Shown: positions 40,107 through 64,000, numbered from the stretch's first letter. The stretch: DNA of 64,000 nt from a virus (IMGVR_UViG_3300031760_000003:1-64000), one strand, 5' to 3'. Program-made: numbers and translations. The notes: generated from the sequence alone by a model not told the origin.

Positions 40107-40972
40107 TAAAAATTCTCCTTTTTTTAACTCTAATATTATTATAACAAAAATTTTAAAACTTTTCAATAGTTTTTTGGTCAAAAATTTTGCGGGAAGAGGG
40201 TTTTTTAAGTAGGAGGGGAGGGAGGGAATATAGTAATCGTTTTTAGAAATGAAAAAAACTTTTGGAGCGGGTGTTGTGGAGCAAAACCCATTTTACCGAA
40301 TTCGCCCAGAAAATCCCATAATACCACCCCCACCTATTGCAAAATCAGAGACCCTATCTTGTCTTTTACACGGGGGAGGGGTAGGAATTAATTCAAAACA
40401 GATAAGGAATCCTCGGTTTGTCAACTCAAGAGACAAACCGAATTTGCGTATAATATCAGTTTTACGTAAAAATTGGAACGATTTCATCATCACCAAAACG
40501 AAGAAAAAAATCCGAAAAAACACTTTTTTACCTTTTGACATCGATGTCATTTTCTGATGGAAAACTGCCTTTTTCTCTTGGCGTTTCGCATCATCGCAAT
40601 ATGGTAGAAATCGCAAATCTTTCAAAAAATCCAGGAAAAACGCACGATGGCTACACGCAGCTACACCTATACATTATTCGTCGGTCCGCATCCTACCCGC
40701 GCGGACCGAATTTTCGCATTATACCATATCTACCAAAATTTGTCAATAGTAAATATGCACAAAAATATAGAAAAAATTTTCCCGAAATTTGTACAGTTTA
40801 TCTCTTGACATTTTCTTTATGGTATGGTATAATTGTAGGCTAACAAGGATCCTGCTGCCTTAACTGGTCCTATTGTATTAAATAAAAAAAAATAAATTTT
40901 TTTAAAAAAAGTATTGACAAGATAAACTTGTAATGTTATAATGTATTTACAAGATAAGGAAAGGAAAGGTAA

Positions 40973-41149
40973 ATGATTATGACAAACACAACAACAACTA
41001 ACAACAATAAAACTTATAATTGGAGAAATGCTAGAAAAAGTCACAAGTGTATCGAAATCTCACCCTTTGAGAAAGAAGAAGCTAAAAAAAGAAAGAATTT
41101 AAACGTTGGTGTTTTCAGAGGCTTCATGTCTGATGGTCACTATCTCTAA
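40973..41149 (+). CDS. Small basic hypothetical protein (58 aa)
   Basis: Own promoter, GAAAGGT RBS, downstream terminator. Confidence 0.6.
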   Translation: MIMTNTTTTNNNKTYNWRNARKSHKCIEISPFEKEEAKKRKNLNVGVFRGFMSDGHYL

Positions 41150-41274
41150 AAGATAGTGACTTTTTATTATTTTAAAAATTTTTTAAAAAAAGTATTGACA
41201 AGGTAACCTTGTAATGTTATAATGTATTTACAAGGTAAGGAAATAAACAAAACAGAAAGTAAGAGGTAAAGGTT

Positions 41275-41460
41275 ATGACAGTAGTAGAAATCAAGGAAAT
41301 GATTAAAAATATGAAGGATACAGACAAAGTTATCTTTGTAAAAGAAACAACAGATAGAGATGGTTATCCTTATGAAGTAAAAGAAAATATCGTTGCTATC
41401 GTTAAAGAGGGAACAGAAAAAGTCAATGTTGGTTGTGGTATCATGAGATATAAAAGATAA
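41275..41460 (+). CDS. Small hypothetical protein
   Basis: Own promoter and GAGGT RBS. Confidence 0.7.
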   Translation: MTVVEIKEMIKNMKDTDKVIFVKETTDRDGYPYEVKENIVAIVKEGTEKVNVGCGIMRYKR

Positions 41461-41541
41461 AAAAATTTAAAAAAAAGTGTTGACAAAAGGTATGACATAT
41501 GATAATATATAATTATCAAGAGGAAAGGTAAGGTAACAAAT

Positions 41542-41724
41542 ATGAAAGTAACAAAAGCAATCGAAATCACAAAAGAAATCTACGAGAAATATAAAACAGG
41601 TATTCCTTCACAGGCACAGGAAGAGGTTTACGGTAGAATTGCGAAAATGGTATTCATCTATAATCCTTATGTATACAAGTCAATGGATGGAAAATATTTT
41701 GCAAGTTATTCATATTATGATTGA
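41542..41724 (+). CDS. Small hypothetical protein, paralogue of 42094..42285
   Basis: KVTK-x-IE-x-TKEIY...YSYYD shared; own promoter and RBS. Confidence 0.8.
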   Translation: MKVTKAIEITKEIYEKYKTGIPSQAQEEVYGRIAKMVFIYNPYVYKSMDGKYFASYSYYD

Positions 41725-41781
41725 CAAAATGAAACAGATATGATAATATATAATTATCAAAGGAAAGGTAGGTATAAAGTT

Positions 41782-41871
41782 ATGTTAGTAGTTATAGTGG
41801 TTACAATGTTTTCAATAATTCCAGCAGTAAAACTTGAGCAGAAAATTAAAAAAGTTATGAATATCGCTTGA
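41782..41871 (+). CDS. 29-aa hydrophobic peptide
   Basis: Own promoter and RBS; stop codon lies inside TTGACA. Confidence 0.45.
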   Translation: MLVVIVVTMFSIIPAVKLEQKIKKVMNIA

Positions 41872-42093
41872 CAAATGCTCTACCTTATGGTAGAGTTGTC
41901 GGTCTGCGATGGGTTGCCGCAGACCGATTTTACTATTATACCATCTCTTGCGGATTTTGTCAATAGGAAAATTGCACAAAAATTTACACAAACGGATCCC
42001 GATATTTGTGCAACTTTTTCTAAAAAAGGTGTTGACAAAATAAAAAGGGTATGATAATATATAATTATCAAAGGAAAGGTAAGGTAAACAGAT

Positions 42094-42285
42094 ATGAGCA
42101 AAGTAACAAAGACAATCGAAACTACAAAAGAGATTTATGATAAGTACCACGAAACAGGCGTACCTTCAAAGGCTTATGAGGAAGTTTATGGCAGAGTTGC
42201 ATCTATAGTATGTATTTATGGTCCTTGCACAGTATATAAAACACCCGATGAAAAATATGTTGCAAATTATTCATATTATGATTGA
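42094..42285 (+). CDS. Small hypothetical protein, paralogue of 41542..41724
   Basis: Paralogy, promoter, RBS. Confidence 0.8.
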   Translation: MSKVTKTIETTKEIYDKYHETGVPSKAYEEVYGRVASIVCIYGPCTVYKTPDEKYVANYSYYD

Positions 42286-42342
42286 CAAAATATTGGTTTT
42301 GTGGTAATATATAATTATCAAAGGAAAGGTAAGGTAATAAAT

Positions 42343-42462
42343 ATGAAAAGAGTTAGAGTAGAGTTTTGGTGTGATGCAATAGAAATTGCAAAAAAGGCTA
42401 TCGATGCAATCATTTATGAAGATAGTTATATAGGTTACGTAGTAGAGTATGTGGCTATTTAG
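42343..42462 (+). CDS. 39-aa protein MKRVRVEFWCDA..., paralogue of 44478..44597
   Basis: Paralogy, promoter, RBS. Confidence 0.75.
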   Translation: MKRVRVEFWCDAIEIAKKAIDAIIYEDSYIGYVVEYVAI

Positions 42463-42855
42463 GCGGCAAGGCGATATGCGGGAACGTGTATCGCCGGCGC
42501 GTCTGCACTTGAGACGCGCCGTTCTATCTATTATACCATACCTTGAATATTTTGTCAATAGTAAAAATGCACAAAAATAACAAGAAAAAAATCCTATAAT
42601 TTGTACACTTTTTCCTCTTGACAAATTCCTTGCGGTATGGTATAATGATTTGCGGCTTGCGGTGTATCATAAAAGATATATTGTATTAAATATAATTTGA
42701 TACAATATAATTCGTTAATTTTCACAAAATTTTAGGATTTTTTTGTGAAAAATAAAAATTAAAAAATTTTTAAAAAAGTGTTGACAAGATAAACTTGTGA
42801 TGTTATAATGTATTTACAAGGTAAGGAAATAAATAAAAGAAAAGAGGTATTTAGT

Positions 42856-43032
42856 ATGAGCAATATGAAAATGATGGTTACCGTTAACAATACACCTGAG
42901 GTATTAAGCAAAGGATTTGTAGTTGCAAGATACTGGGATGGAGAGCTTTGGTATTATGGCAAGTATGATTCTAAACAGTTCGCAAAAGAGGTTGCTGAAC
43001 AGGTAGACGGAATAGTCTTGACAATAGAATAA
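42856..43032 (+). CDS. Small hypothetical protein, paralogue of 46471..46641
   Basis: VNNTP...FVVAR-x2-DGELWY-x-G shared. Confidence 0.8.
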   Translation: MSNMKMMVTVNNTPEVLSKGFVVARYWDGELWYYGKYDSKQFAKEVAEQVDGIVLTIE

Positions 43033-43147
43033 GGTTAAATATGGGGAGTTGAAAAAATAACTCCCCAACAAAAAAAATAAAAAAATGCTTGACAAATAAA
43101 ATCAAAGTGATATAATATAATTATCAAAGGAAAGGTAGGTAACTAAT

Positions 43148-43378
43148 ATGAATAAAGAAAAATTTTGGGATAACATCGGATACGTAATAATGGCACTTTT
43201 ACTTGTAGGACAGGTTACTGTTGGTTGGTTATTTATGGTAGGTCAGGGTGCTTACTTACTCGGTAACATTATAAATGTTATTCGTGATTTTAAACTTGGC
43301 AGACCTCGAGCAGATAAAGTAAAAAATATTTGCTTTACTGCCATAACAGTAGGACTTATAATTTTATATATTTTTTAA
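43148..43378 (+). CDS. Small membrane protein
   Basis: Three hydrophobic segments; promoter and RBS. Confidence 0.7.
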   Translation: MNKEKFWDNIGYVIMALLLVGQVTVGWLFMVGQGAYLLGNIINVIRDFKLGRPRADKVKNICFTAITVGLIILYIF

Positions 43379-43458
43379 AAAAAGTCCTTGACAAATGAAA
43401 AAATTTTTATTATAATAAGTATATAAGATAAAACAAAAGAAAGGTTAGGTACAAAATT

Positions 43459-43674
43459 ATGAGACAGTTAATTTGGGTTAAGGCAGACGGAACAGAGTCA
43501 AAGACATACGTTAAGGGGGCAACTACTAAGTTAGTAAATCTCCCCGAGGATAACGGCAAGTCAAAACTCCTTTTCAAACTTCTCCATCAGCACTACGCAG
43601 AGGTTGGCGCAAAGGTGGTTGAAGAACTCAAGAACGGCACTTACAAGTCAGAAAATTACGCTTTATATATGTAG
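43459..43674 (+). CDS. Small hypothetical protein
   Basis: Promoter, RBS, downstream terminators. Confidence 0.7.
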   Translation: MRQLIWVKADGTESKTYVKGATTKLVNLPEDNGKSKLLFKLLHQHYAEVGAKVVEELKNGTYKSENYALYM

Positions 43675-43954
43675 CGGCAAGGGGGCTTAAAGCCCCTGCC
43701 CGCAAATCATCTTACCTCCTCCCTATACCTTAAGGCACCCTATTTGCAAGGGTGCCTTACTTTTTGGGCGTGTCGTCATGGGTCGCGACGACACGTGTTT
43801 TTCATTATACCATACTCTGAATATTTTGTCAATAGTAAAAGTGCATAAAAATTCATCTCTTCGGATCCTGAAATTTGTGCAACTTTTTTTTTAAAAAGGT
43901 ATTGACTAATGGATGCGAGTATGGTATATTATAATTACAGAAAGGGAAAAGAAA

Positions 43955-44074
43955 GAAAGTGGATAACCTTTCAAAGAGATAGTTAGCAATGAAAAGTGAA
44001 AAGTAGGGATTTCTAAATTAAAGAATTTAGAGGTTTTGAAAAATAACTTTTTACCTGACGGAAACTTTCACCGA
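43955..44074 (+). ncRNA. Structured ncRNA, copy A (homologue at 51540)
   Basis: Own promoter, no ORF, stems covary with copy B. Confidence 0.7.
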
Positions 44075-44162
44075 AACTTAAAAAATTTTTAAAAAAGTAG
44101 TTGACAAATATTAACAGATATGTTAAGATATAATCAGAAAGAGGAAAGAGAGGTAAACAGTT

Positions 44163-44396
44163 ATGATGAACAAAGAATATTTTGAAAACTTATTACAGGA
44201 ATTAGTTGCTTGTGGAATAATCTACATCAAGGAATACAAAGGCACTGTTAATGTAACTTTTGAAGATGTGGATTTTGTTGATGAAAGAGCCGAAGAATTA
44301 GAAAATTTCTTCTATGAAATGTGTGAAGGAGATTTTTATCTCTCAGGCGAAATTTTTGGTAAAGATTACGTAGTAGGTTTTGGAGATATGGAATAA
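44163..44396 (+). CDS. Small acidic hypothetical protein
   Basis: Promoter; GAGAGGT RBS. Confidence 0.7.
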   Translation: MMNKEYFENLLQELVACGIIYIKEYKGTVNVTFEDVDFVDERAEELENFFYEMCEGDFYLSGEIFGKDYVVGFGDME

Positions 44397-44477
44397 TAAA
44401 AATCTTCAAAAACCTATTGACAAATACTCACAAGTATGATATAGTATAATTAACAAAAGGAAAGAGAGGTAATGAGT

Positions 44478-44597
44478 ATGAAGAGAGTAAGAGTAGAGTT
44501 TTGGTGTGAAGCATTAGAGTTAGCAAAGAAAACTATTGATGCAGTAATTTATCAAGATAGTTATGTTGGGTATGTAGTAGAATACGTTCCCGCTTAA
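44478..44597 (+). CDS. 39-aa protein, paralogue of 42343..42462
   Basis: Paralogy, promoter, RBS. Confidence 0.75.
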   Translation: MKRVRVEFWCEALELAKKTIDAVIYQDSYVGYVVEYVPA

Positions 44598-44681
44598 CTA
44601 AAAAAATTTAAAAAAGTATTGACAACCTTTAAATTATCTGATATAATTTAATCAAGATAAAAGAAAGAGAGGTAAACGCTT

Positions 44682-44846
44682 ATGAAGAACTACACAATTA
44701 GATTTTACACAACTGTTGATACAATAATCGAAATGAACATTGAAGCAAAGAACATGCTTGTTGCAGAAAACATTGCTTATGATAACTTTGCTAATGGTGG
44801 TTATGAAGGCTCTATTGTAAGAGTTGAGGCTTCTGGAAGAATTTAA
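44682..44846 (+). CDS. Small hypothetical protein (54 aa)
   Basis: Promoter; GAGAGGT RBS. Confidence 0.65.
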   Translation: MKNYTIRFYTTVDTIIEMNIEAKNMLVAENIAYDNFANGGYEGSIVRVEASGRI

Positions 44847-45054
44847 AAAATTCTTCCAAAACCACTTGACAAAAATTATTTTTCTGGCTGGCGCGCTTAC
44901 CTTCGGCGCGCGCTGAATTTTACATTATATCACAGCACCGATATTTTGTCAATAGTAAAAGTGTACAAAAATTTACCTCTTCCGATCCCGAAATTTGTGC
45001 AACTTTTTTGTATTTACCTATTGACTTATTCTGTAGTTATGGTATACTTGTATT

Positions 45055-45340
45055 ATCAAAGAGATGAGGAATAAGGACCGAGCCTACAGGGTGGGCGAGA
45101 ATTGTGGTGACTAAGTCCTAGGGGTGTCACCGCACTCGCGAAACTAACAGAGATACCCATTAAATCGGTGGTGCCTATCACGAGGCAGTTTCTCCTAAAA
45201 GATATCGTGACAGTGACCCTTAACTTTTCCACCACTAAGGCAATGGAAAATGACCTATGTTGTGCTATCGAGCAAGGTCGGGCAGAAAATTGCATACCGG
45301 TAGCAAGTTGGAGAGGGGGTTTTAATCCCTCTCCTTTTTC
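45055..45340 (+). ncRNA. Candidate ~285-nt structured ncRNA
   Basis: Promoter at 45021, elevated GC, multiple stems, terminator, no RBS-supported ORF. Confidence 0.6.
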
Positions 45341-45564
45341 TTTTGAGCGTCGCGTCAACTCAAGAGACGCGACGTATTTTCAATTATGTTACGCATAACA
45401 TATTTTTGTCAATAGGCAATTTGAACAAAAATGCAATGGAAAAGATCCTGAAATTTGTGCATATTTTTTTTTAAATTTTTCTAAAAAGTGTTGACACGCA
45501 CCCTATAAAATGGTAGTATATATATGTAAGGAAGAGATAACAACCAACTTGGAGGTAAAAAGAT

Positions 45565-45873
45565 ATGATAAACATTAGAACACTTAGAAACATTAAGAAC
45601 AACGGTGGTTTAACACTTAAGAACGGCAAGGCTATCACTTATAAAACAGGTTGGCAGGTTGCCACTGAAGGTGTACAGACAACCGATATCAACGAAGTCC
45701 GCGGACTTATTAAAAAATACAATGGTAACTGTGGGCTGTGGCTTGAAAATGGCGTATGGTATGTTGATAAAAGCCATAGAGTAAACACAAAAAAGGAAGC
45801 ACTCCGAATCGGTAAAGAGTGCAACCAAATATCAGTTTTAAAATGGTCTGATATGTCCCTTGCCTACTGCTAA
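45565..45873 (+). CDS. Hypothetical protein
   Basis: GGAGGT RBS; promoter at 45491. Confidence 0.75.
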   Translation: MINIRTLRNIKNNGGLTLKNGKAITYKTGWQVATEGVQTTDINEVRGLIKKYNGNCGLWLENGVWYVDKSHRVNTKKEALRIGKECNQISVLKWSDMSLAYC

Positions 45874-45980
45874 AAAGTAGGCAAGAAAAAATAAAAAAAA
45901 TTTAAAAAGTGCTTGACAAAATAATCGGTATATGGTAATATATAATCATAAGGAAAACAAAGAAAGGTTGGTATAGAAAT

Positions 45981-46124
45981 ATGTTTATAGTTAAAGGTTT
46001 TAAGAACGGCGTTATGGATACAATTCACTGCTTTGGAATGTCTGAGGCATACAGAGCATATCACAAAATGATTAACTCAGGGTATGTCGGAATCGAGATT
46101 TCCGAGTCCGATATGCTCGTTTAA
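45981..46124 (+). CDS. Small hypothetical protein (47 aa)
   Basis: Promoter, RBS, terminator. Confidence 0.6.
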   Translation: MFIVKGFKNGVMDTIHCFGMSEAYRAYHKMINSGYVGIEISESDMLV

Positions 46125-46470
46125 CCTCCTACCTTACCTACGGGGCGCCAATTCGGCGCCCTCTTTTGTTTTGGACGGGCAGCGATGAACCGCCGCTGCC
46201 CGAATTTTTAATTATATCACCCTTTGCGATTTTTGTCAATAGGAAAATTGCACAAAATTTTTAACAATTTCATCCTAAAATTCTATGTATTTTTTCTTGA
46301 TGATCTCGGTGTGGATTTGTCAATAGTAAAAATGCACAAAAATTTACAGCAAAAAACTTTATCTTTGTGCAATTTTCTTTAAATTTCCCCTTGAAATCTA
46401 TTTTTGCTTTTGATATAATGTATTTACAAGGTAAGGAAAACAATTCAGTTGTGAAAGGTAGGTGCTTATT

Positions 46471-46641
46471 ATGGAGATTTTAGTAAAGGTTAACAACACA
46501 CCCGATGGATTCACTCCTAAGTTTGTAGTAGCAAGAGTTTGTGATGGCGAACTCTGGTACTGGGGCAACTTTGAGGATGAGGCTACTGCTTATGAGGTCG
46601 CAGCAAAGCTCGACGCAGTTGTGATTCCCGCCAACAAGTAA
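46471..46641 (+). CDS. Small hypothetical protein, paralogue of 42856..43032
   Basis: Paralogy, promoter, RBS. Confidence 0.8.
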   Translation: MEILVKVNNTPDGFTPKFVVARVCDGELWYWGNFEDEATAYEVAAKLDAVVIPANK

Positions 46642-46768
46642 TCACTCAAGAGGGGGTGCAAACCCCCCTCGAGTAAAAAATTTTTTTTAAAAAGTAGTTG
46701 ACTTTTTGTCCGTATGGGTGTATACTATGTATATAGTTAAGGATAAGTATTTTTAGGAGGTATTGCTT

Positions 46769-46963
46769 ATGTTTTATGTAATGTATGGACAGTATGGAGA
46801 TTTCGTTAAGGCTTTCGATACAGAGGAAGAAGCTCTTGCTTACATCGAGAGTAAATCTTGCCCTGATGATTATTGGGTTTGCACTGATGATGAAGAACCC
46901 GATGACATCGATTCGGATTTCGGTTTTGACTCTTACGAGGGTTGCTACACCTACGATTGCTAG
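46769..46963 (+). CDS. Small, very acidic hypothetical protein
   Basis: AGGAGGT RBS; Asp/Glu-rich C-terminus ending GCYTYDC. Confidence 0.7.
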   Translation: MFYVMYGQYGDFVKAFDTEEEALAYIESKSCPDDYWVCTDDEEPDDIDSDFGFDSYEGCYTYDC

Positions 46964-47027
46964 GTGTGGCACAAAAAATTTTAAAAAAGGTATTGACATT
47001 CCCTTCGGGGTATGATAATATAATAAT

Positions 47028-47228
47028 GTAAGGAGCGGGAGGGCGACGCGAAGAGCGGGTCACAAGTAGACCGTGTAAGACCTTTTAAACGCAACGAACA
47101 CCCTGAAAGCAATCTCGGGTAGGAAGCCGAGAAGCCCTTACAAAACAAAAGGCTTGAACTCCAGAGTGTGCCTTAAACACGAGAAGAAAGTGAGTAAAAA
47201 AGGAAAGACTCCGGAAGGAGTCTTTTTT
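47028..47228 (+). ncRNA. Candidate ~200-nt structured ncRNA
   Basis: Promoter at 46993, GTAAGG/CCTTAC closing stem, terminator, no ORF. Confidence 0.55.
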
Positions 47229-47439
47229 CTTTGGGCGTGGCGTCAACTCAAGAGACGCCACGAATTTAGCATTATACCATGGTCCGCATATTTTGTCAAG
47301 AGTAAATATGCACAAAGATCTGGTCGGTATACTCCTAAAATTTGTGCATCTTTTTTGCTTCTACCTCTTGCAATGTTTTAAAATTTATGTTATTATATCT
47401 ATACAAGGTAAGGAAAAACATCAAAGCGAGGTACTTAAT

Positions 47440-47667: not shown

Positions 47668-47669
47668 TT

Positions 47670-47822: not shown

Positions 47823-47872
47823 CATTCTCTCTTGAATATGGTAAGATATAATTATCAAAAGAAAGGTAGGTA

Positions 47873-48067: not shown

Positions 48068-48302
48068 GCCGCCATCTCCCAAGGCTTTGAACGTCGCGTA
48101 ATCTACCCGCCACGCGACGTATTTTGCGATTATACCATATTCGGTAAAATTTGTCAATAGGCAATTTGTACAAAATTTTTAGCATAGGAATCCCGAAATT
48201 TGTGCATATTTTTTCTATAAAAATGTTGACATATTTTTACTATGTGGTATACTAATAATGTAAGGAAGATAAACAACCAAATCGGAAAGGTAGGTAAGAA
48301 TT

Positions 48303-49704: not shown

Positions 49705-49927
49705 GCAAGTACGCGACGCTCATTAAGTTGGGCGTCGCGTTAGCACTTGTAACGCGACGAATTTTCAATTATACCACACCCTGTAAAATTTGTCAATAGG
49801 CAAAATGCACAAAAATGTGACTGTTGCAATCCCGAAATTTGTGTAACTTTTTTTCTAAAACCCCTTGCAAAGTTCTAAAATGTATGGTATTATATCTTTA
49901 CAAGGTAAGGAAAGCGAGGTATTAAGT

Positions 49928-52286: not shown

Positions 52287-53561
52287 ATGGCACTTACAAA
52301 AAATGAGAAATTTAAACTTGATGATTTTATGTGTAGACATATCAATGAGTATTTGACAACAAAAAATGTTCCTATCTCAACTATTCATTCTGATATGGAA
52401 AATGATGATGTTATATTTTCCACCCCCTTAAAGTTGGTAAGCCTTCAGGCAAGTGGCAAAAGAATAGATGAAAATATTAGTATAAAAAGAGATGGTAATA
52501 TTTTAGTATTCGTAAAAGGAGCCTTTTTAAAATTTAATGGTCTTTCTTATGAGTACGGCAAGGTTACCAAAGAAAAAAATATTATTCACCTTACAGGTTA
52601 TACGGGATTACAGTATGACGTTATCACAAAAGAGTTTAATATCAATATAAATAACTGTAAAGACTTTACTCGCCATTATGGTAATTTTGAAAATATGGCT
52701 AATAACTATGAATGGATTTTTAACTATCAGAATGACATCCATGAGATAAAAAATATAATTGAAATGTGTGAAAATTTTGGGTACAAGACAATGCCTAAAG
52801 GGTTGTCTAAAGAGTTAAATGGAAACAGTTTAACTGCCGATTATCTTAAAAAGTATCTTTTAAGAAATTATAGTGGTAAATATTACAATATAAGTGAAAG
52901 TATGTATCGTTACGCAAGTGGAATTTCAATTCCCGATTTAATTAAAACTATATCATGGATAAATGAAAACATACCTTTTGAAAGTTTTATAAAAATGGTT
53001 AAAAACGAAATAGTTTCAGAGGATTTTCGTAGTAATCTTATTATCAATGGTGACATGGAAACATTCTTTGAAAGTGTTAGACGTATGCTTAAAAAATGGG
53101 ATGATAAAGAGCCGTTTAAATTCAATTTTGAAAGAGGTCTTACCTATAACTGTGACGCAATGAACGATTATACAGATAAAGAAAAAAATAAAAAACTTGC
53201 TACTAAATTACAGGCATTTAACTTTATCAATAATCTAAAAATCAATGATGATAAATATATTGTAGTAGTACCCCAAACGCAAAGCGATAAACGTGAAGAG
53301 GGTAGACAGCAGAATAACTGTGTTGGCTCTTACTATGATGATTATATTATGTCAGGTCACGGCACTGTTTATTTCATAAGAAAGGCAAATAATAAAAATC
53401 ACTCTTTTATCACTTGCCGTTATGATTATCGTGATAATAGAACTGTCGAGGCAAGATATGTAAACAATAATAGTATCGAAGATGAAGATAAAGAAATTAT
53501 AAAGAGTCTCGATAAAATAATCAAAGAAAAACTTAATGAAAAAAGAAAGGAAGAAAACTAA
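52287..53561 (+). CDS. PcfJ-like domain protein
   Basis: C-terminal P...EGRQQNNCVGSYY...YFIRK...FIT motif. Confidence 0.7.
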   Translation: MALTKNEKFKLDDFMCRHINEYLTTKNVPISTIHSDMENDDVIFSTPLKLVSLQASGKRIDENISIKRDGNILVFVKGAFLKFNGLSYEYGKVTKEKNIIHLTGYTGLQYDVITKEFNININNCKDFTRHYGNFENMANNYEWIFNYQNDIHEIKNIIEMCENFGYKTMPKGLSKELNGNSLTADYLKKYLLRNYSGKYYNISESMYRYASGISIPDLIKTISWINENIPFESFIKMVKNEIVSEDFRSNLIINGDMETFFESVRRMLKKWDDKEPFKFNFERGLTYNCDAMNDYTDKEKNKKLATKLQAFNFINNLKINDDKYIVVVPQTQSDKREEGRQQNNCVGSYYDDYIMSGHGTVYFIRKANNKNHSFITCRYDYRDNRTVEARYVNNNSIEDEDKEIIKSLDKIIKEKLNEKRKEEN

Positions 53562-53562
53562 A

Positions 53563-53904: not shown

Positions 53905-54129
53905 AAATGTGGCACGGCTAAGGGTAAAACCTTTGGTCGTGCCATTTTCTGTCGAAATGGCACGAATTTCGCATTATACCACCCGCCGCATATTTTGTCA
54001 ATGGTAAATTTGTACAAAAGTAACACAAGAAAAATCCTAAAATTTGTACAACTTTTTTCATCATATCCCTTGCAATTCTCAACGTATATGGTATAATTTA
54101 ATTACAGTAAAGGAAAGGAAAACAAAAGT

Positions 54130-56530: not shown

Positions 56531-56719
56531 TGTCGGCTCGACATGGGTCGCGTCGAGCCGAATTTCTAATTATACCACCTTCCGCAAAATTTGTCAATAG
56601 GCAATTCCACCAAAAACGTCTTCCCGCAACTCCCAAAATTTGTGCAATATTACTACTTGTTTTTCCTACTGTATCTGTTATAATATATATATCAGTTAAG
56701 AAAAGAAAGGAAAGTAAAA

Positions 56720-57409
56720 ATGGACAAAAGGATAAGTTATAAACTTGTAATTGACACGGAAACGTGTCCTCTTGATAAGGAACTTAATGATGTTAACCCT
56801 TATAATATGTTTACGTATGATGTTGGTTGGGCAATTGTTGATAAAAGAGGAAATGTATATGACACTAAATCTTATATTAACGCCGATATCTTCCTTGATG
56901 AAAAAGAACTTATGCAAAGTGCTTACTACTATGATAAAGTGCCTAAATATTGGGAAGATATAAAGTCGGGTAAAAGAACTTTAACCTCATTTTACAAAAT
57001 TAGAAAGTCATTACTTGACGATATCGAAAAATATAATATCAGTGAGGTTTATGCCCACAACATGCGTTTTGATTATGGTACTTTAAATAATACGCAACGT
57101 TGGTTAACTAAATCGGCATATAGATACTTTTTCCCTAAAGATGTAGTTATCTGTGATACTCTAAAAATGGCAAGACAGTTAATTGCAACTATGCCAACAT
57201 ACAAACAGTTTTGTATTGATAATGGCTATATGACTAAAAATAATCAAGTACAGTTAAAAGCCGAAACGATTTATAAGTTTATCTCAGGTGATGATGATTT
57301 TATCGAAAGTCATACAGGTCTTGAGGACGTTTTAATCGAAAAAGAAATACTTGCGTACTGTTATAGAAAACATAAAAAAATGACAAAAGAATTGTGGGAA
57401 AGGGGTTGA
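56720..57409 (+). CDS. DEDDh 3'-5' exonuclease
   Basis: ExoI IDTET, ExoII AHNMRFD, ExoIII HTGLED. Confidence 0.85.
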   Translation: MDKRISYKLVIDTETCPLDKELNDVNPYNMFTYDVGWAIVDKRGNVYDTKSYINADIFLDEKELMQSAYYYDKVPKYWEDIKSGKRTLTSFYKIRKSLLDDIEKYNISEVYAHNMRFDYGTLNNTQRWLTKSAYRYFFPKDVVICDTLKMARQLIATMPTYKQFCIDNGYMTKNNQVQLKAETIYKFISGDDDFIESHTGLEDVLIEKEILAYCYRKHKKMTKELWERG

Positions 57410-57458
57410 CAAGCCCCTTTCCGCATGGTATAATAAAGAAAAACGAGAAAGGTAGGAA

Positions 57459-57938
57459 ATGTTTATGAAACTTTTAATCACATTTATCGTACTATCAATT
57501 ATCAATGTAGTTTTCTCTACTGTTCGTTCAATTACCACTATCAAGAGTGGAAAGACAGTAGCAAGTTTTATCAGTGGTGGGTACTTTGCATTTTACAATG
57601 TAATGTTGATTTACACCGTAGCAGACTTTCCGATGTGGGAAAAATGCGTTATCACTTTTGTTTGTAACGTAATCGGCGTGTATGTGGTAAAACTTATTGA
57701 AGAGAAAATGCGAAAAGATAAGTTATGGAAAGTTGAATTAACAGTAGAAAAAGACAAGACTGAAAGCCTTGATATTCACTTAACAGAACTTGATATCCCT
57801 CATAACTACATTCAGAATATTGGTAACTACACAATTTTCAATATTTATTGTGCAACGCAAAAGGAAAGCACATTAGTAAAGGAACTTGCAACCAGGTATA
57901 ATGCAAAATTCTTCGTATCTGAAACGAAAACACTTTAA
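57459..57938 (+). CDS. Membrane protein (DUF5698/UPF0316-like architecture)
   Basis: Three N-terminal hydrophobic helices plus a soluble C-terminal domain. Confidence 0.55.
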   Translation: MFMKLLITFIVLSIINVVFSTVRSITTIKSGKTVASFISGGYFAFYNVMLIYTVADFPMWEKCVITFVCNVIGVYVVKLIEEKMRKDKLWKVELTVEKDKTESLDIHLTELDIPHNYIQNIGNYTIFNIYCATQKESTLVKELATRYNAKFFVSETKTL

Positions 57939-58173
57939 AATGTCAAGAGAAAAGGTAGATAAAAAATCTACCTTTTTTTGTGTAATTTTACCTATTGACA
58001 TGCGGCAAGAGGTATGGTATAATGGGCGGTGCGTTCGCTACTCAAACGCACCGCATTTTCGTTTATTGTATAATTTGTATAATTTTAAACTGTAAATTTG
58101 GTCATTATTACTACTTGTATTTATCCTATAATATGTTATACTTATATTATCAAAGAAAGAGAGGTAAACAGTT

Positions 58174-58335
58174 ATGGAAAATAAAAACATTATGGATATC
58201 ATTGAAGAAAAGATTAAAGAGATACCTTTAAAGGGTTCGAGAGAATCTGACTTTTTGGAACTCGGTATGCGCATTGTATACGCAGAGATTCTCGATTATC
58301 TTACAGAAGAAGAACTTACAAAAATAAGAAAATAG
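58174..58335 (+). CDS. Small hypothetical protein (53 aa)
   Basis: Promoter; GAGAGGT RBS. Confidence 0.65.
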   Translation: MENKNIMDIIEEKIKEIPLKGSRESDFLELGMRIVYAEILDYLTEEELTKIRK

Positions 58336-58374
58336 TAGTTGACAAACAATAAAAAATATGGTATAATAAATATA

Positions 58375-58460
58375 TAAGAGGTGGCGGAAAGGTAAACGCC
58401 GGATGTGACTCGTTCTCTGAAAAGAGTGTAGAATTGCAGGTTCGAATCCTGTCCTCTTAA
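58375..58460 (+). ncRNA. tRNA-like RNA with aberrant anticodon arm
   Basis: Acceptor TAAGAGG/CCTCTTA, D arm TGGCGGAAAGGTAAACGC, T arm GCAGG-TTCGAAT-CCTGT; own promoter at 58339. Confidence 0.7.
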
Positions 58461-58583
58461 CTCTAAATCAATTCATACTTACCTTCCTTTCAAAAGGCAC
58501 TGTTCAGTTTAAGACTTGGGCAGTGCTTTTTGCTTGACAAATTTTAAAAATTATGTTATAATATTATTAGAAAGTGAGAAAGT

Positions 58584-58757
58584 ATGATTTATAAAGTTGA
58601 CAATGTAAACAAAATTGACTATTATCGGCAAGATAAAGATTCTAAACAACAAAAGAAAAAAGATAAACGAGAACAAGAGAAGAAGAAACAAACAAGTTTT
58701 GAGGATATCTTTGCGGAAGAACTTGAATCTTTATCTAATTTTGATGTGAAGATATAA
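58584..58757 (+). CDS. Small charged hypothetical protein (57 aa)
   Basis: Promoter at 58534; weak RBS. Confidence 0.55.
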   Translation: MIYKVDNVNKIDYYRQDKDSKQQKKKDKREQEKKKQTSFEDIFAEELESLSNFDVKI

Positions 58758-58930
58758 GCTGCGGCAAGGCACTTTACTCGACCGCGGCGTGTTTTGACGC
58801 AACGCCGCGAGTTTTTTGTCAAGATGTATTTTCACTAAATTTTAATTTCCATTTTTGTATAATACTACCTATTGCTTTTGTCCCGAAATAGTGGTATTAT
58901 TAGTATATCAAAGAAAGAGAGGTAACAGTT

Positions 58931-59143
58931 ATGGAAAAGAAATTTGAAAATAAAGATAGAGTTTTAATGGAAAATGCCTTTTTTACTCAGGACAATATAG
59001 GTGTATATGGTTGGTATGGATTAGACTATTTTGAAATAGAAAATAAAGAAGATTTTATAAACCTAAAACGAGATGAATTTTTAACCTTATATAATTTAGT
59101 AGTAGAAATGAAAAAAGAAATTGACAGATTAGAGAATTTATAG
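58931..59143 (+). CDS. Small hypothetical protein
   Basis: GAGAGGT RBS. Confidence 0.7.
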   Translation: MEKKFENKDRVLMENAFFTQDNIGVYGWYGLDYFEIENKEDFINLKRDEFLTLYNLVVEMKKEIDRLENL

Positions 59144-59180
59144 TATAATAAAGTTAATCAAAGAAAGAGAGGTAAGCAAA

Positions 59181-59345
59181 ATGACAGATTACGAAAGATT
59201 AGTTTTAAGAATGAATATTATCGGTGGTATTTTTCAGGATATGGGTAACGAAAATGTAACCGAGAATGACCTTGAAAATATCGCTAAAGATACTGATAGG
59301 TACAAGAGATTTGTTAATGATTATGTAACCTATGGAATTGAGTGA
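59181..59345 (+). CDS. Small hypothetical protein (54 aa)
   Basis: Promoter at 59121; GAGAGGT RBS. Confidence 0.65.
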   Translation: MTDYERLVLRMNIIGGIFQDMGNENVTENDLENIAKDTDRYKRFVNDYVTYGIE

Positions 59346-59350
59346 CGGCT

Positions 59351-59364
59351 CGAACATACGTTCG
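59351..59364. promoter_or_regulatory. Candidate Gram-positive LexA/DinR (Cheo) box
   Basis: CGAACATACGTTCG matches CGAACRNRYGTTCG; 25 nt upstream of the -35 at 59390. Confidence 0.45.
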
Positions 59365-59448
59365 AACCGCACCTCCGCAAAATTTCTGCTTGACAAATAC
59401 CATTAAAGATGATATACTTATATTATCAAAGAAAGAGAGGTAACAGTT

Positions 59449-59769
59449 ATGGAATTACAAGTAACAATTATTAACCCCACAGGAAAGTATAAGCCTATGT
59501 CTTGTCTCGTACCTATTCCTATGAAAGAGGTAGTTGCAAAGAATTATGAGCCGTATAGAAATAAGGGTGTAATTAAGATTTGTCAGAACAGAAATATGAC
59601 AAGCCGTGACCTTAAAAAGTATGGTTACACACAAGTTAAAATCCGTATCTATGATGCGAAGAAAATCGAAACAGAAAATAAGGAAAGATATGACGCCATT
59701 AAAAGAGAAAAGTTTGCAAGTGGCGAGTGGAAACCCTCAAAGAGAGATATTGAGAAAGGACTGGCATAA
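59449..59769 (+). CDS. Basic hypothetical protein
   Basis: Promoter and RBS. Confidence 0.75.
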   Translation: MELQVTIINPTGKYKPMSCLVPIPMKEVVAKNYEPYRNKGVIKICQNRNMTSRDLKKYGYTQVKIRIYDAKKIETENKERYDAIKREKFASGEWKPSKRDIEKGLA

Positions 59770-59771
59770 AA

Positions 59772-60032
59772 ATGAAGAAAATAATATATGTGTTAACTTT
59801 ATATGATTATGAAATAACTGGTGATGATTGTGATGTTTCTGATAGATGTGCGATTTTAAGTGCTTATGATAGTGAAGAAGAAGCAGAAAAAGGGATGCTT
59901 AACTATTATAATAACTATATCGCTTTAGACAATAATAGTCCTATTGCTAACACTATTGAAGAAATGGAGACTTGTTTAGACAAACTTAACTTCTGGTACG
60001 AGATTACAGATACTCACTACTACACAAGATAA
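59772..60032 (+). CDS. Small acidic protein, paralogue of 54619..54870
   Basis: Paralogy. Confidence 0.8.
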   Translation: MKKIIYVLTLYDYEITGDDCDVSDRCAILSAYDSEEEAEKGMLNYYNNYIALDNNSPIANTIEEMETCLDKLNFWYEITDTHYYTR

Positions 60033-60046
60033 AGGAGAGATATAAA

Positions 60047-60238
60047 ATGAAAAAAATCCCAACAATAACAATTTGCGTAACAAAAGAAGAGCAGAAAATT
60101 TTAAAAAATTTTTATGATACAGTATGTAAAGATACTAATATATCTAATGATGATAGTATTGATATATTAGATAGCATTGCTAAAGAGTGTCCCCTTACAA
60201 ATAATGATTATATAAAAATTGATTTTAAAGAAGAATAA
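60047..60238 (+). CDS. Small hypothetical protein
   Basis: AAGGAG RBS. Confidence 0.7.
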   Translation: MKKIPTITICVTKEEQKILKNFYDTVCKDTNISNDDSIDILDSIAKECPLTNNDYIKIDFKEE

Positions 60239-60264
60239 AAACAAAATATAAGGAGAGATATAAA

Positions 60265-60453
60265 ATGAGATTTACTGTTACTAAAACAATAATTTTAAAT
60301 AAGGCAGAACGTGATGTGCTTACACGATTTGAGGCGATGATAGATGAGATGAACTTAAACGCAGATGAGATAGAACAGTTGTTGTTTGATATTTACCGTG
60401 ATAAAACGCATAGCACTGGGAGTGATATTCTCATCAATTATGTAGACGATTAA
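60265..60453 (+). CDS. Small hypothetical protein
   Basis: AAGGAG RBS. Confidence 0.7.
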   Translation: MRFTVTKTIILNKAERDVLTRFEAMIDEMNLNADEIEQLLFDIYRDKTHSTGSDILINYVDD

Positions 60454-60688
60454 AAAATAAGCCGTTCAAGCATTGACTTGGACGGCTCGTTTGCACTTGA
60501 AACGAGCCGAACTTTCCATTATACCACCTGCCGCAAAATTTGTCAAGAGAAAAAGTGAAAAAATTTTCACAAAAAGTTTTCCTAAAATTTGTGCAATTTT
60601 TTACTCAAAACTACTTGCAATTATTTTAAATAAGAGTATAATTATAATTGTAAGGAAGATAATACACAACAGAAAAGAGGTAACTGTT

Positions 60689-61210
60689 ATGAGTAAAAAA
60701 TTAAAAGGTTTAAAAAAACTTAATAAGGCTATTGGGACACCTATTAAAGAGCGTTTCGGTATTAGCAAAGTTTCTATGACAAAAGACTTTGAATATAGTT
60801 TTGTCAAAGATAGGGTTGGTTGGTCTTTAGTTGAAAACGCATACGCACAGGAAGATTTTATCTCTTTTGTTAAGGATAGATTTAACTATGAGATAGGCAG
60901 ATATAACTTTATAGCAAGTCTTTTGCATGAAGTCGGACACGCAAAAAACAATGATGATATCATTGATAGCGTTCAGGATTTTTGCATTGACGAGAAAGAA
61001 AAAATAGCAAAAGAAATCAATAATGCTACCGATAGAGAAGAAATAAAGAAAATAAACTATAAATATTTCTCTCTCCCCGATGAAATTATGGCTACGGCGT
61101 GGGCAATAAAGTATATGAAAAAACATCCACGTATAATAGCAAAAATGTGGGATGAAATGTGGTCGGCTATTTTGGACTTTTACGAAAAAAATCACCTTGA
61201 GGAAGATTAA
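60689..61210 (+). CDS. Zincin-like metallopeptidase (HEXXH)
   Basis: LLHEVGH plus downstream PDEIMA; start reassigned to ATG 60689 after GAGGT. Confidence 0.65.
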   Translation: MSKKLKGLKKLNKAIGTPIKERFGISKVSMTKDFEYSFVKDRVGWSLVENAYAQEDFISFVKDRFNYEIGRYNFIASLLHEVGHAKNNDDIIDSVQDFCIDEKEKIAKEINNATDREEIKKINYKYFSLPDEIMATAWAIKYMKKHPRIIAKMWDEMWSAILDFYEKNHLEED

Positions 61211-61277
61211 ATCTTCCTTAAGGGGTTGACAATAGCAAATTAAGTGATATAATAGTATTAGAAAGGAGATAAAAAGT

Positions 61278-61619
61278 ATGGCTAAAAAGAATATTGATAA
61301 AGAGGCATTGATAGAGAAGATAATGGCGGAATGTGCTAAAGATGGTGAGCCTGTTACGCGGGAAGAGGCAGAGGAAATGGCGGAAATGGAAATTAAAAGT
61401 GGTGACATTTCTAACTATACCATTTCAGAGAAAAAGGAAAAGGCTGTCCGTAAACCTCGTGAAAAAAAGGTTGATGATGAAAAGGCAAAAATTATAGAAA
61501 TTATAGGAAAAGCCTTGACAGATAATGGCTATAATGCTATAATAACTAATGTAGATAGAGAAATAACTATTGACAATATGTCATTGGTACTTACAAAGCA
61601 CAAGAAAGGTGGTAAATAA
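61278..61619 (+). CDS. Hypothetical protein
   Basis: Promoter at 61226; AAGGAG RBS. Confidence 0.75.
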   Translation: MAKKNIDKEALIEKIMAECAKDGEPVTREEAEEMAEMEIKSGDISNYTISEKKEKAVRKPREKKVDDEKAKIIEIIGKALTDNGYNAIITNVDREITIDNMSLVLTKHKKGGK

Positions 61620-61620
61620 T

Positions 61621-62061
61621 ATGAAATATTTAATAATTAAGTGTAATGAATTAAGTGACCAGTATGAATGTGATGCCGATAGAACTCCTGTATGTTTGAC
61701 TGATGATTTTAAAAAATATGATAGATATGAATATGAGATTTATGAAATCACATCTGAAAATACTTTCAAATTGATTAAAGAATACGGCACCTCTTCAAAT
61801 AAAGGAATGGCTGTCTATAAATGGTATAATGAGGATGATGATAAAGGTGAACCCGATGAAATTATGGTAATGGATAAGAATTATACTCGTGAAGATTATA
61901 CAAAATCAAAAATTAAGCAGATAAAATCTGATTACCATTTTAAAGATAGTGTTAATAAAATATATACTGATATAAAATGCTCAGGTAGTCATGGAGAAGA
62001 AATTAACGACGAATGGGTGGTTATTGGAGAGTATATAGAAGGTGATTATTGGGAGAGATGA
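61621..62061 (+). CDS. Hypothetical protein
   Basis: ATG 61621 after AGGTGG. Confidence 0.7.
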   Translation: MKYLIIKCNELSDQYECDADRTPVCLTDDFKKYDRYEYEIYEITSENTFKLIKEYGTSSNKGMAVYKWYNEDDDKGEPDEIMVMDKNYTREDYTKSKIKQIKSDYHFKDSVNKIYTDIKCSGSHGEEINDEWVVIGEYIEGDYWER

Positions 62062-62087
62062 TATTAAAAAAGAAAGGGTGATGTAAA

Positions 62088-62510
62088 ATGACACGTAGAG
62101 AAGAAGCGATTTTTACTAATGAACTGGTAGAACTTTTAACAGGAGATGATGATACAACTGATAAAGAATTTTTTGAACGGATAATTTGTGCAAATACTGT
62201 TATTGCGAGATGCTTGTCCCGGTTTAAAGATGACTATGATGAGGTTGATACTAAACCTACTCCCACTGTTAAAGAAGAGACTCCTGTACCTCCCTATTAC
62301 GTAGCAAGTGTTAGTAATGGAAAAACTTGTGCGAGTTTAGGTTTTTACTCAATTGAGGAAAAGGCTCAAGCAAGTATTATAAAATATGAAAATACGTTAA
62401 ACTCATCAAAGTCCTATGATAATTGGGGTGATTTTATACATGATTATTGCAATAATGAAACTCAAATCACTGATTATGATATCTCAATGGAATATCTCGA
62501 TGTTGATTAA
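62088..62510 (+). CDS. Acidic hypothetical protein
   Basis: RBS; bidirectional terminator at about 62509-62533. Confidence 0.7.
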   Translation: MTRREEAIFTNELVELLTGDDDTTDKEFFERIICANTVIARCLSRFKDDYDEVDTKPTPTVKEETPVPPYYVASVSNGKTCASLGFYSIEEKAQASIIKYENTLNSSKSYDNWGDFIHDYCNNETQITDYDISMEYLDVD

Positions 62511-62975
62511 AAAGTGCCGTAAGGCACTTTTTTATTGTTCCGACGGGTCGCGATGAACCGCCGCGACCCGAAATTTCCATTATACCACTTTCCGCACATT
62601 TTGTCAAGTGAAAATTTGCACAAAAATTTACAAGTTTTAATCCCAAAATTGTACTTTACTTTTGCTAAAATTTTTGGTATACTTATTATAGATGGAAAGG
62701 AAACAAGCCGTTAACGGCTATAAGTAAAGGGGTTTCCGTGGCTATATGTGAGGGTTTAGGTAGTCATCTAAAAAAATAAAAAATTTTTGTTGACAAACAA
62801 AAAATCTTATGTTATAATAAATACATAAGATAAAGAAAGAGGAAAAGTCAAGTACCTCTTAAAAAATTTAAAAAAAAATAAAAAAAAACACTTGACAAAC
62901 TTAATAAAGAATGTTATAATAATAACATAAAGAACAACAAACAAACAAATTTTTTAAGAAAGGTGGTCATTAACT

Positions 62976-63338
62976 ATGGCAGAGAAGAAAGTAACTAAGG
63001 TGGAGAAATTTAACGCAATTGCAAAGGTACTTGCTGATGCAGGTGTTGAGAAAATCTCTATCCGCAACGAAGAGGTCAATGTAGCAGAGTTCATCGGTAA
63101 CGAGGTTGCTCTTATCGAGAAGAAAGCATCAAAGGCTACAACCAAGAGAGTAGACAATTCAGAGGGTATCGCAAAGGTACGTGAGGTACTTGCAGACGGC
63201 AAGGCTTACACTCCTACTGAAATTCAGGCTCTCACAGGACTTGTCAATACGCAGAAAGTCGCTTCAGTCCTCAAGGCTATGGGCGATAGCGTAAAGAGAG
63301 AGTCAAAGGGCAAGAAAGTAACTTACAAACTTGCCTAA
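62976..63338 (+). CDS. Putative winged-HTH DNA-binding protein
   Basis: YTPTEIQALTG...TQKVASVL...VKRESKGKKVTY; tandem strong promoters; biased codons. Confidence 0.6.
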   Translation: MAEKKVTKVEKFNAIAKVLADAGVEKISIRNEEVNVAEFIGNEVALIEKKASKATTKRVDNSEGIAKVREVLADGKAYTPTEIQALTGLVNTQKVASVLKAMGDSVKRESKGKKVTYKLA

Positions 63339-63369
63339 TCGGAAATGGGGCTTTTAATAGCCCCACTCC

Positions 63370-63761
63370 CTTAGGGGAAATTGGGGATGGATGGCTACCC
63401 CTGTTCCGCGACTAAAACCTAACCCGAAGGAAAAAGCGTGATATCCCGTAGAAAAGACGTTACAACTCCGTAGGTGATAGATGCTACGTATTAAAAAGTC
63501 TATCGCTACCGTCAAGGTTATGAAAGTTCAACCTGACTTGCAGAGAAAAACTTGCTCCCTGTGGAAAGCGTGGTTATCCTTTCCCGTTGTGCATTACGTT
63601 AAATCCCGTAGAACAAAGAGCAGATTTACTACGATAGAAAACATGCTGCCCGGTTGGTACCACGATATAATACTACGCTTAAAGATTTCCACGTGAAAGA
63701 AATCTCTTAAAAAGCATCCCACTATTACGAGGTCTGCAACTCGCGTAGGGGTGCTTTTTTT
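63370..63761 (+). ncRNA. Candidate ~390-nt structured ncRNA
   Basis: Elevated GC, many stems, internal sequence repeats, terminal terminator, no RBS-supported ORF. Confidence 0.55.
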
Positions 63762-64000
63762 GTTTGGTCGGGCAGTTCGCTTCTCAAACTGCCCGAAATT
63801 TCCATTATATCACATCCCGCAAAATTTGTCAAGAGGAAATTTACACAAAATATAAAAAAATTTAATCCCGATTTTCGTCATTTTGCCAGTAGTATCTTTT
63901 AAAAAATTTTGATATAATCTATATATAAACAAAAGGGAAAACAAAAATTTTTTAAACGGGAGTTATAAAAAATTTAAAAAACCCTATTGACAAATTTAAA

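Follow-up and report, generated by a model that had tools for sequence, protein, structure and literature searches.

What is a consensus promoter for when it points against the flow of the surrounding genes, leads straight into a GC-rich hairpin and is followed by no gene? This question is raised by the virus sequence IMGVR_UViG_3300031760_000003:1-64000, the first 64 kb of a 165,479-bp IMG/VR virus record, referred to here as the window. Its early region contains fifteen leftward units, each composed of a promoter and a hairpin at an almost constant distance from the −10 box. Our answer is tentative, with a probability of about 0.4: judged from the sequence, each unit would be a strong promoter making an antisense RNA that lacks an open reading frame (ORF) and carries a protective 5′ hairpin, most likely acting in cis at the boundary between early transcription units.

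Anatomy and register of the units

Exact matches to TTGACA-N16-18-TATAAT occur at 34 sites in the window, compared with 0.09 expected. Fourteen of them are leftward, all within 40718-63832, and a fifteenth leftward promoter (45383) has an 18-nucleotide (nt) spacer and CATAAT. No leftward copy with the cassette context described below was found outside this interval in the whole 165,479-bp genome. In 14 of the 15 leftward promoters all 12 hexamer positions match the consensus and a TG extended −10 is present, whereas the rightward, gene-driving partner promoters in the same cassettes match at only 8-12 of 12 positions; thus, the backward promoters are held at consensus by selection. A GC hairpin of 27-30 nt with a stem of 9-13 bp lies 7-8 nt from the −10 box in 14 of the 15 copies. 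The outlier is the 44924 copy, where the hairpin, with boundaries read by eye, is ~10 nt away. In 12 copies the dyad register is constant, with about 22 bp (21.5-22.0 by numbering) between the dyad and the first base of the −10 box on its right. The units are as follows.

Unit 1: 40681-40746, − strand; hairpin 40681-40709, promoter 40718-40746; at the junction between the leftward late and sigma-like genes and the rightward early genes.
Unit 2: 41899-41963, − strand; hairpin 41899-41927, promoter 41935-41963; the upstream (+) gene encodes a 29-amino-acid hydrophobic peptide (41782-41871).
Unit 3: 42495-42558, − strand; hairpin 42495-42521, promoter 42530-42558.
Unit 4: 43769-43832, − strand; hairpin 43769-43795, promoter 43804-43832; the hairpin adjoins a canonical (+) terminator.
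Unit 5: 44890-44952, − strand; hairpin ~44890-44913 (offset ~10 nt, by eye), promoter 44924-44952.
Unit 6: 45348-45412, − strand; hairpin 45348-45374, promoter 45383-45412 (18-nt spacer, CATAAT).
Unit 7: 46176-46239, − strand; hairpin 46176-46202, promoter 46211-46239; followed by a partial second cassette at ~46300-46400.
Unit 8: 47236-47299, − strand; hairpin 47236-47262, promoter 47271-47299; with the bidirectional terminator at ~47194-47225, the predicted leftward RNA is ~70 nt.
Unit 9: 48091-48157, − strand; hairpin 48091-48120, promoter 48129-48157.
Unit 10: 49733-49796, − strand; hairpin 49733-49759, promoter 49768-49796; an upstream copy of one hairpin arm permits alternative pairing.
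Unit 11: 53937-54001, − strand; hairpin 53937-53965, promoter 53973-54001.
Unit 12: 56533-56597, − strand; hairpin 56533-56561, promoter 56569-56597.
Unit 13: 60483-60546, − strand; hairpin 60483-60509, promoter 60518-60546.
Unit 14: 62544-62607, − strand; hairpin 62544-62570, promoter 62579-62607; with the bidirectional terminator at ~62508-62535, the predicted leftward RNA is ~65 nt.
Unit 15: 63768-63832, − strand; hairpin 63768-63796, promoter 63804-63832; a terminator acting leftward lies near 63710.

Behind none of the 15 units is there an ATG-started ORF of at least 12 amino acids with a ribosome site within ~300 nt downstream. The unit at 53973 has a weak 31-amino-acid ATG candidate from +286 with a poor Shine-Dalgarno match, and the remaining ORF candidates behind the leftward promoters are weak TTG or GTG starts only. 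Hidden small genes behind the backward promoters were therefore rejected, since no convincing ORF was found. The upstream (+) genes end 62-130 nt ahead of the leftward −10 box, and in eight window copies the stop codon is only ~25-30 nt before the hairpin; the predicted leftward RNA spans the terminator and the 3′ untranslated region (UTR) of the upstream (+) gene. A preliminary description of this DNA had reported fifteen leftward TTGACA-17-TATAAT promoters, a hairpin 7-8 nt past the −10 box, a dyad fixed in 12 copies, the lack of a following ORF and stems that differ yet stay paired. The promoters (including the 18-nt spacer and CATAAT that it noted in one copy), the dyad, the missing ORFs and, as described below, the pairing are borne out by our analysis, and the hairpin distance holds everywhere but at 44924.

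To place the units in a wider family, we turned to related phages, which were found by scanning the viral collection with an operator-plus-35 motif. The scan returned 20 related contigs of 11-194 kb, and the early regions of five of these were taken for a promoter-hairpin survey. A strong promoter-like site was allowed at most 1 mismatch, and a hairpin was scored if it started 2-14 nt after the −10 box. In these related-phage sequences a strong GC hairpin accompanies 98 of 534 strong promoters, compared with 159 of 7,200 random positions (2.2%). The promoter-hairpin unit was found in every related phage stretch examined in full, with 15-20 units per genome, at nearly every early-unit boundary. 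The offset peaks at 7-8 nt (55 units); 94 units lie at 2-9 nt and 4 beyond 9 nt. Two classes are seen: class v1 (69 units, offset 6-9) is antisense to the genes, and class v2 (25 units, offset 2-5) has a gene-sense promoter on the other side of the hairpin. In 47 of the 69 v1 units exactly 9 nt separate the end of the upstream element TTTGTGCA from the −35 box, and in 19 of the 25 v2 units this element lies 9-10 nt upstream of the box, compared with 7% of other promoters, in which it is often one helical turn further off (19-20 nt upstream of the −35 box). On sequence grounds, the hairpin-associated promoters are a distinct promoter class, with the hairpin travelling with the promoter. The signature can be used to recognise the early regions of uncultured phages from gut and rumen, a large group. 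DNA searches among cultured phages, near and distant, gave no match; the only match, of 27 nt, is in the uncultured phAss-1 (one or two units), and the phAss-1 paper does not discuss promoters and hairpins.

The stem sequences differ among copies with the pairing retained. We aligned 43 non-identical units with MAFFT and compared nine base-anchored pairs. Changes on both sides of a pair occupy 98 cells, compared with 37 ± 4.6 in shuffles, and none of 500 shuffles is as high. The covariation score is 0.558, compared with 0.04-0.17 with slid partners, and the helix is recovered by RNAalifold. Possession of a stem was a condition for entering this set, which makes the percentage paired circular, a reservation that does not extend to the slid controls or to the enrichment over random positions. 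When this phage is set against its closest relative, which is about 85-95% identical, the likely orthologous hairpins show one clean compensatory pair and loops that change. In one likely orthologous pair, matched only by 78% flank identity, the stem is wholly replaced and the loop is unchanged. An attenuator-like alternative pairing with a third arm is present at 49768 and 53973; it was rejected as a family feature because it is not enriched (3/69 compared with 2/138 controls).

The register indicates what is being conserved. Family-wide, the distance from the −10 box to the stem base has a standard deviation of 0.8, compared with 2.2 for the distance to the dyad centre, and hairpins of 35-40 nt are still found at a 7-9-nt offset. 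That the base offset is tighter than the dyad points to a rule concerning the 5′ end of an RNA and not a symmetric DNA site.

The boundary cassette and its genomic setting

The units each form the left-hand portion of a boundary cassette of ~190 bp, which follows immediately on the end of the preceding transcription unit. Read on the (+) strand, the first half comprises, often, a canonical terminator, then the GC hairpin, a 7-8-nt A/T spacer and the leftward promoter. The second half contains a TGCACAAA element, a stretch of ~22 nt with an ATCC(C/T)GAAA core, a TTTGTGCA element and a weaker rightward promoter, which drives the next early genes. The cassette is thus a divergent promoter pair with mirrored upstream elements. 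The units, previously described as a dispersed family, are not free-standing and make up one arm of a terminator/divergent-promoter cassette with shared TTTGTGCA elements. The larger cassette is new in this analysis, as are two gene-sense units, at 57995-58054 and at 65121. A representative right half and the gene-sense unit within the window are given here.

Right cassette half: 49797-49893, + strand; TGCACAAA beside the leftward −35 box, central ATCC(C/T)GAAA, a TTTGTGCA-type element and the rightward promoter 49865-49893 (9/12).
Gene-sense variant: 57995-58054, + strand; consensus promoter 57995-58023, hairpin 58026-58054, starting 2 nt after the −10 box.

Beyond the gene-sense hairpin lie a T-rich tract and a leftward promoter that has decayed. 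This variant is the sixteenth promoter-hairpin unit in the window; the gene-sense unit at 65121 lies just beyond it. Read by eye, the decayed right arm of the variant is accounted for by a deletion between AAATTT repeats. Backward and gene-sense promoters sometimes flank one hairpin together as a convergent pair. An invertible promoter, with inverted −35 elements flanking the −10 box and hairpin, was also considered. It is ruled out by the offsets of the two orientations (2-5 and 7-8 nt), and because these differ, the orientations are not simple inversions of each other. A partial extra cassette (−35 box, TGCACAAA element and TTTGTGCA-like element) lies at 46300-46400, directly after the 46211 cassette, and is a sign of local duplication or of recombination between cassettes.

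The cassettes begin where the genome changes direction. Large structural genes run leftward from 2.2 to 40.2 kb, including a terminase-like gene and one for a 2,944-amino-acid protein with a minor-tail domain. At 40.2 kb the GC and AT skews reverse, and numerous small rightward genes lie beyond. The nearest named kin of the terminase belong to large Firmicutes siphoviruses, namely Geobacillus E3, Enterococcus phages, the uncultured gut phage phAss-1 and SPbeta-like phages, and the genome-collection labels of the cassette-bearing contigs are Ruminococcus, Lachnospiraceae, Eubacteriales and Clostridium. A member of the Clostridia from gut or rumen is the probable host, and the phage, large and siphovirus-like, is not T4-like.

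Several neighbouring features deserve mention. The gene adjoining the first cassette (38988-40181, − strand) matches a phage sigma-factor PHROG (2.8e-47); it has a C-terminal HNH/endonuclease VII-like zinc-finger region, no Pfam family match and its own near-consensus promoter at 40138-40166 (− strand). Between this promoter and the first cassette, 40170-40700 comprises ~550 bp without a convincing ORF; its two candidate ORFs have no PHROGs match, and with its C-rich runs it could hold an RNA. The 29-amino-acid ORF at 41782-41871 (+) has a hydrophobic N-terminal stretch, a lysine-rich tail, its own promoter at ~41724-41752 and a ribosome site; the leftward unit at 41935 converges on its 3′ end, a layout like that of a type I toxin-antitoxin pair such as bsrG/SR4. 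An early protein of 424 amino acids (52287-53561, + strand) has a PcfJ-like domain (Pfam PF14284, 2.9e-15) of a family known from conjugative plasmids. Two pairs of tiny early genes are paralogous (41542-41724 with 42094-42285, and 42343-42462 with 44472-44597), and the early region has grown via duplication of gene-plus-cassette modules.

Other RNA and promoter elements were also noted. In Rfam 15 at gathering score, tRNA-Lys is the sole match in the window, and no hairpin unit is matched. ARAGORN reports an 87-nt tRNA-Val(GAC) at 58375-58461 (+), which is below the gathering score of the Rfam tRNA model; it has its own consensus promoter at 58339 and may be a long-arm or aberrant tRNA-like RNA. 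A second promoter class (40914-40942, 41195-41223 and 42781-42809, + strand) has an inverted repeat in the spacer, ACAAG-N5-CTTGT, and an A-run before the promoter; it heads small early genes and looks like an operator within a promoter. A third class has a conserved AAAAATTTTTG spacer ahead of the −10 box and is found at 24040, 43388, 55326 and 63987 (running to 64015, beyond the window), as well as at genome positions 121314 and 126377. These promoters occur on the late (leftward) and early (rightward) sides alike and may be a separately regulated set. Lastly, CCUCC-rich stretches lie in 3′ UTRs at 43690-43720 and 46125-46160 (+); the opposite strand resembles the phage's own ribosome-binding sites, and inverted modules may have left these stretches behind, or they may be anti-Shine-Dalgarno-like sequences.

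Possible roles of the units

In the reading that we prefer, a very strong promoter of the host sigma-A/sigma-70 type, with an upstream TTTGTGCA, a perfect −35 box, an extended −10 and a perfect −10 box, would fire leftward and oppose the early-gene flow. The transcript would begin at the base of the GC hairpin without unpaired 5′ bases; by spacing, the hairpin is predicted to begin within ~0-1 nt of the 5′ end. The 5′-end-dependent decay enzymes of Firmicutes (RppH and RNase J1) would act poorly on such an RNA, as B. subtilis RppH requires at least two unpaired 5′ nucleotides (PMC3997798). With a start ~7 nt after the −10 box and an offset cut-off at 9 nt, the RNA would always have fewer than two unpaired 5′ bases, and the cut-off fits a 5′-terminal protective hairpin on a stable antisense RNA. 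This non-coding RNA would run back into the preceding early unit, across its terminator and 3′ end, where it may act in cis in two ways. It could pair with the 3′ end or the read-through of the upstream early mRNA and lead to RNase III-dependent trimming in the style of oop and SR4, and the head-on transcription itself could insulate adjacent early units. What the sequence establishes is anatomy, register, conservation and covariation; promoter firing, the start position, stabilisation by the hairpin and the function of the RNA are inferred.

Several observations weigh against this proposal. The predicted start is taken from spacing rules only. Most leftward RNAs have no predicted terminator: a terminator scan places a leftward terminator within 100 nt in 15 of the 69 v1 units family-wide and in 3 of the 12 window units that it scored, with up to ~6 of 15 by eye. 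G-T and A-C counts in the stems are about equal (15 and 12) and almost nil in perfect-stem units, so that neither strand is favoured; the G-U fraction is 3.8% in the promoter sense, 5.1% in the gene sense and 5.8% in ordinary terminators. Convergent promoter pairs around one hairpin are awkward for a purely RNA-based role, and the gene-sense copies have their predicted start within the stem, which would cost the RNA some of the hairpin. Moreover, the fixed 7-8-nt spacer of the v1 units, read in the gene sense as the tail of the hairpin (consensus AATTTTCC, mean 3.4 T per 8 nt), could be the U-tract of a weak terminator, with at least 5 T per 8 nt in 16 of the 69 units.

This last point leads to the main rival account, in which the hairpin serves mainly in the gene sense, as a back-up intrinsic terminator or 3′-end stabiliser of the upstream early unit, and the leftward RNA is a by-product. 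The backward promoter would then adjoin the hairpin for compactness, or would block read-through as a roadblock or by head-on collision. Besides the A/T-rich tail with its T run, this account draws on the v2 tail (AATTTTTT, at least 5 T in 11 of 25 units), on the 28 of 69 units with no other terminator between gene and cassette, and on the short distance from stop codon to hairpin in the eight window copies; a v2 transcript starting inside the 5′ arm (offset 2-5) would escape termination, while transcripts from upstream would be stopped. However, 41 of the 69 v1 units already have the T-run of a canonical gene-sense terminator at most 25 nt before the hairpin, which makes the hairpin usually redundant as a gene-sense terminator and rarely transcribed in that sense. 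The first two bases past the stem in the gene sense are usually A, tails with at least 5 T are limited to the 16 units given above, and tail T content is unrelated to the presence of another terminator, being no stronger where none exists (3.57 compared with 3.32 T). The perfect consensus of the backward promoters and the offset stop at 9 nt are also left unexplained. We consider this account doubtful, though worth taking seriously.

The RNAs might alternatively act in trans, as short hairpin RNAs (terminated at 60-100 nt, or ~30-nt decay-resistant remnants) that are decoys or ligands for an RNA-binding protein, a nuclease or a defence sensor. The strong promoters and the protection that a 5′ hairpin would give are compatible with this, some units end at bidirectional terminators, and within a single phage a few loop sequences are found repeatedly on different stems, the pattern expected from loop recognition by a protein. 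Nevertheless, the loops vary widely from phage to phage and change between orthologous hairpins, a terminator is present at only ~22% of units, and neither a candidate binding protein nor a complementary target was found; loop-loop or loop-ribosome-site complementarity, by eye, is limited to 4-nt matches, and Rfam gave no match. Such a function seems unlikely to us. The preliminary description had pointed in this direction, with decoys, seed-bearing RNAs or R-loop primers, for which no specific support emerged: there is no conserved single-stranded seed in the units, and the loops differ among phages. Its bidirectional terminators at ~62510, 47204 and 63710 are present; the discrete 60-100-nt small RNA that it envisaged applies to a minority of units, given the terminator count above. 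Past the hairpin, the sequence in the promoter direction is C/A-rich and T-rich in 0 of 69 units, which indicates that the hairpin is not the terminator of the leftward RNA. Its placing of the hairpin at the start of the leftward RNA agrees with the register, which argues for the very 5′ end as predicted from spacing.

A role at the DNA level would make the GC palindrome, set in easily melted A/T-rich promoter DNA, a cruciform or a recombination seam, and the cassettes homology patches for the shuffling of early modules. The large palindromes formed by some copies, with two convergent copies of one promoter around a hairpin, would suit this, as would stems that are almost wholly Watson-Crick on both strands and a 1-kb module (43890-44920) that is flanked by two cassettes here and corresponds to one cassette in the close relative. 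Yet the breakpoints are not enriched in cassettes (6/36 compared with 16% expected, p = 0.5; one genome pair, with crude BLAST block ends), which counts against recombination seams. In addition, asymmetric loops of 7-13 nt hinder extrusion, the base offset and not the dyad is conserved, and shuffling needs no hairpin in register with the −10 box; we regard a DNA-level role as quite unlikely. A promoter-proximal RNA signal that alters its own polymerase, as put and nut/boxB do, or a polymerase sink would redirect host RNA polymerase in the takeover or the early-to-late switch. The hairpin does come immediately behind the start site, the same loop types appear repeatedly in a phage, and all 15 units aim at the late cluster (2.2-40.2 kb). 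Slow escape is expected from perfect-consensus promoters with a GC-rich initial transcribed region, as these are. Against this, put RNA is far larger than a single simple hairpin, no gene for an antiterminator was recognised, late transcription would be poorly served by fifteen promoters scattered over 23 kb, and a sink needs no palindrome, which leaves the idea very improbable. Hairpin promoters of the N4 type for a virion RNA polymerase, brought to mind by two giant ORFs, were rejected, since one of these ORFs has a minor-tail/tape-measure-type domain and the hairpins here come after a perfect sigma-70-type promoter and not before the start site.

A broader possibility is that the clade-wide gene-less units, with a consensus promoter and a 5′-triphosphate GC hairpin at early-operon boundaries, would constitute a distinct takeover or timing system. 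This might consist, for example, of decay-proof hairpin RNAs with protein-read loops that titrate a host RNase or defence sensor, or of cis hairpins that reprogram the polymerase. We hold it to be doubtful.

If the units are transcribed as predicted, with an antisense RNA protected at its 5′ end, these phages would devote the strongest promoters they have to non-coding antisense RNAs at every boundary between early units. This would provide built-in, genome-wide insulation and timing of the host-takeover genes, and a natural test of how a nucleotide-precise 5′-terminal hairpin governs RNA fate in Firmicutes. Because the units are compact, strong and modular, with freely changeable stems, they are also possible expression-control parts for Clostridia.

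Comparison with known systems

Of the concepts described so far, the promoter-early stem-loop (PeSL) cassette of T4-type phages comes closest, as the preliminary description had already recognised while setting the backward, fixed-register arrangement apart from it. In PeSLs, a terminator stem-loop and a promoter serve one gene direction, and shuffling of early-gene modules has been proposed (Arbiol 2010, PMC2839356; Comeau 2014, PMC4122927). Both are short repeated composites of a strong host-type early promoter and a stem-loop, present in many copies among small variable early genes. However, the promoter abutting the hairpin is backward and gene-less here, in a fixed 7-8-nt register, and it is accompanied by a second, divergent promoter and TTTGTGCA elements in a phage that is not T4-like. 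The co-directional logic of terminator and promoter does not apply here, since the promoter is antisense and ORF-less and none of the 69 v1 units has a T-rich tail in the promoter direction. With regard to shuffling, one module insertion is flanked by cassettes, and the breakpoints of the one genome pair are at the expected frequency.

Lambda oop RNA and P22 sar RNA are short antisense RNAs that converge on the 3′ end of an early gene, each at a single locus. SR4, an antisense RNA of SPbeta, overlaps bsrG mRNA at the 3′ end and promotes decay of this mRNA (PMC3834814). The present units resemble these in having their own promoter in or beside an early unit, in their convergent arrangement and in a predicted RNA whose sequence complements the 3′ part of the mRNA; at units with a bidirectional terminator, the predicted RNA ends after ~60-90 nt. 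They differ in that the known examples are single loci with a defined target, whereas here there are 15-20 units per genome with a 5′-terminal GC hairpin and mostly no terminator.

The 5′-terminal hairpin itself has counterparts in the stem-loop stabilisers of the E. coli ompA and papA leaders and the B. subtilis aprE leader (reviewed in PMC3997798). As in those leaders, the hairpin would occupy the very 5′ end of the RNA, leaving at most one nucleotide unpaired there, and the offsets here stop where the 5′ end turns single-stranded. The known cases stabilise mRNAs, whereas the RNA here is ORF-less and antisense, and its stabilisation is predicted.

The early promoters of SPbeta contain SPBRE operators, which are bound by the MrpR repressor (PMC10516654). 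By analogy only, TTTGTGCA is likewise a short repeated motif, standing at many of the early promoters in a large siphovirus of Firmicutes and lying 9 or 19-20 nt upstream of the −35 box, positions about one helical turn apart. Its sequence is different and no MrpR-like gene was identified here; candidate binding factors, by this analogy, would be a repressor, an activator or the polymerase alpha subunit. In the full-text literature we found no published description of a backward, gene-less promoter-hairpin arrangement. What is unusual here is that the strongest copies aim backwards and drive nothing.

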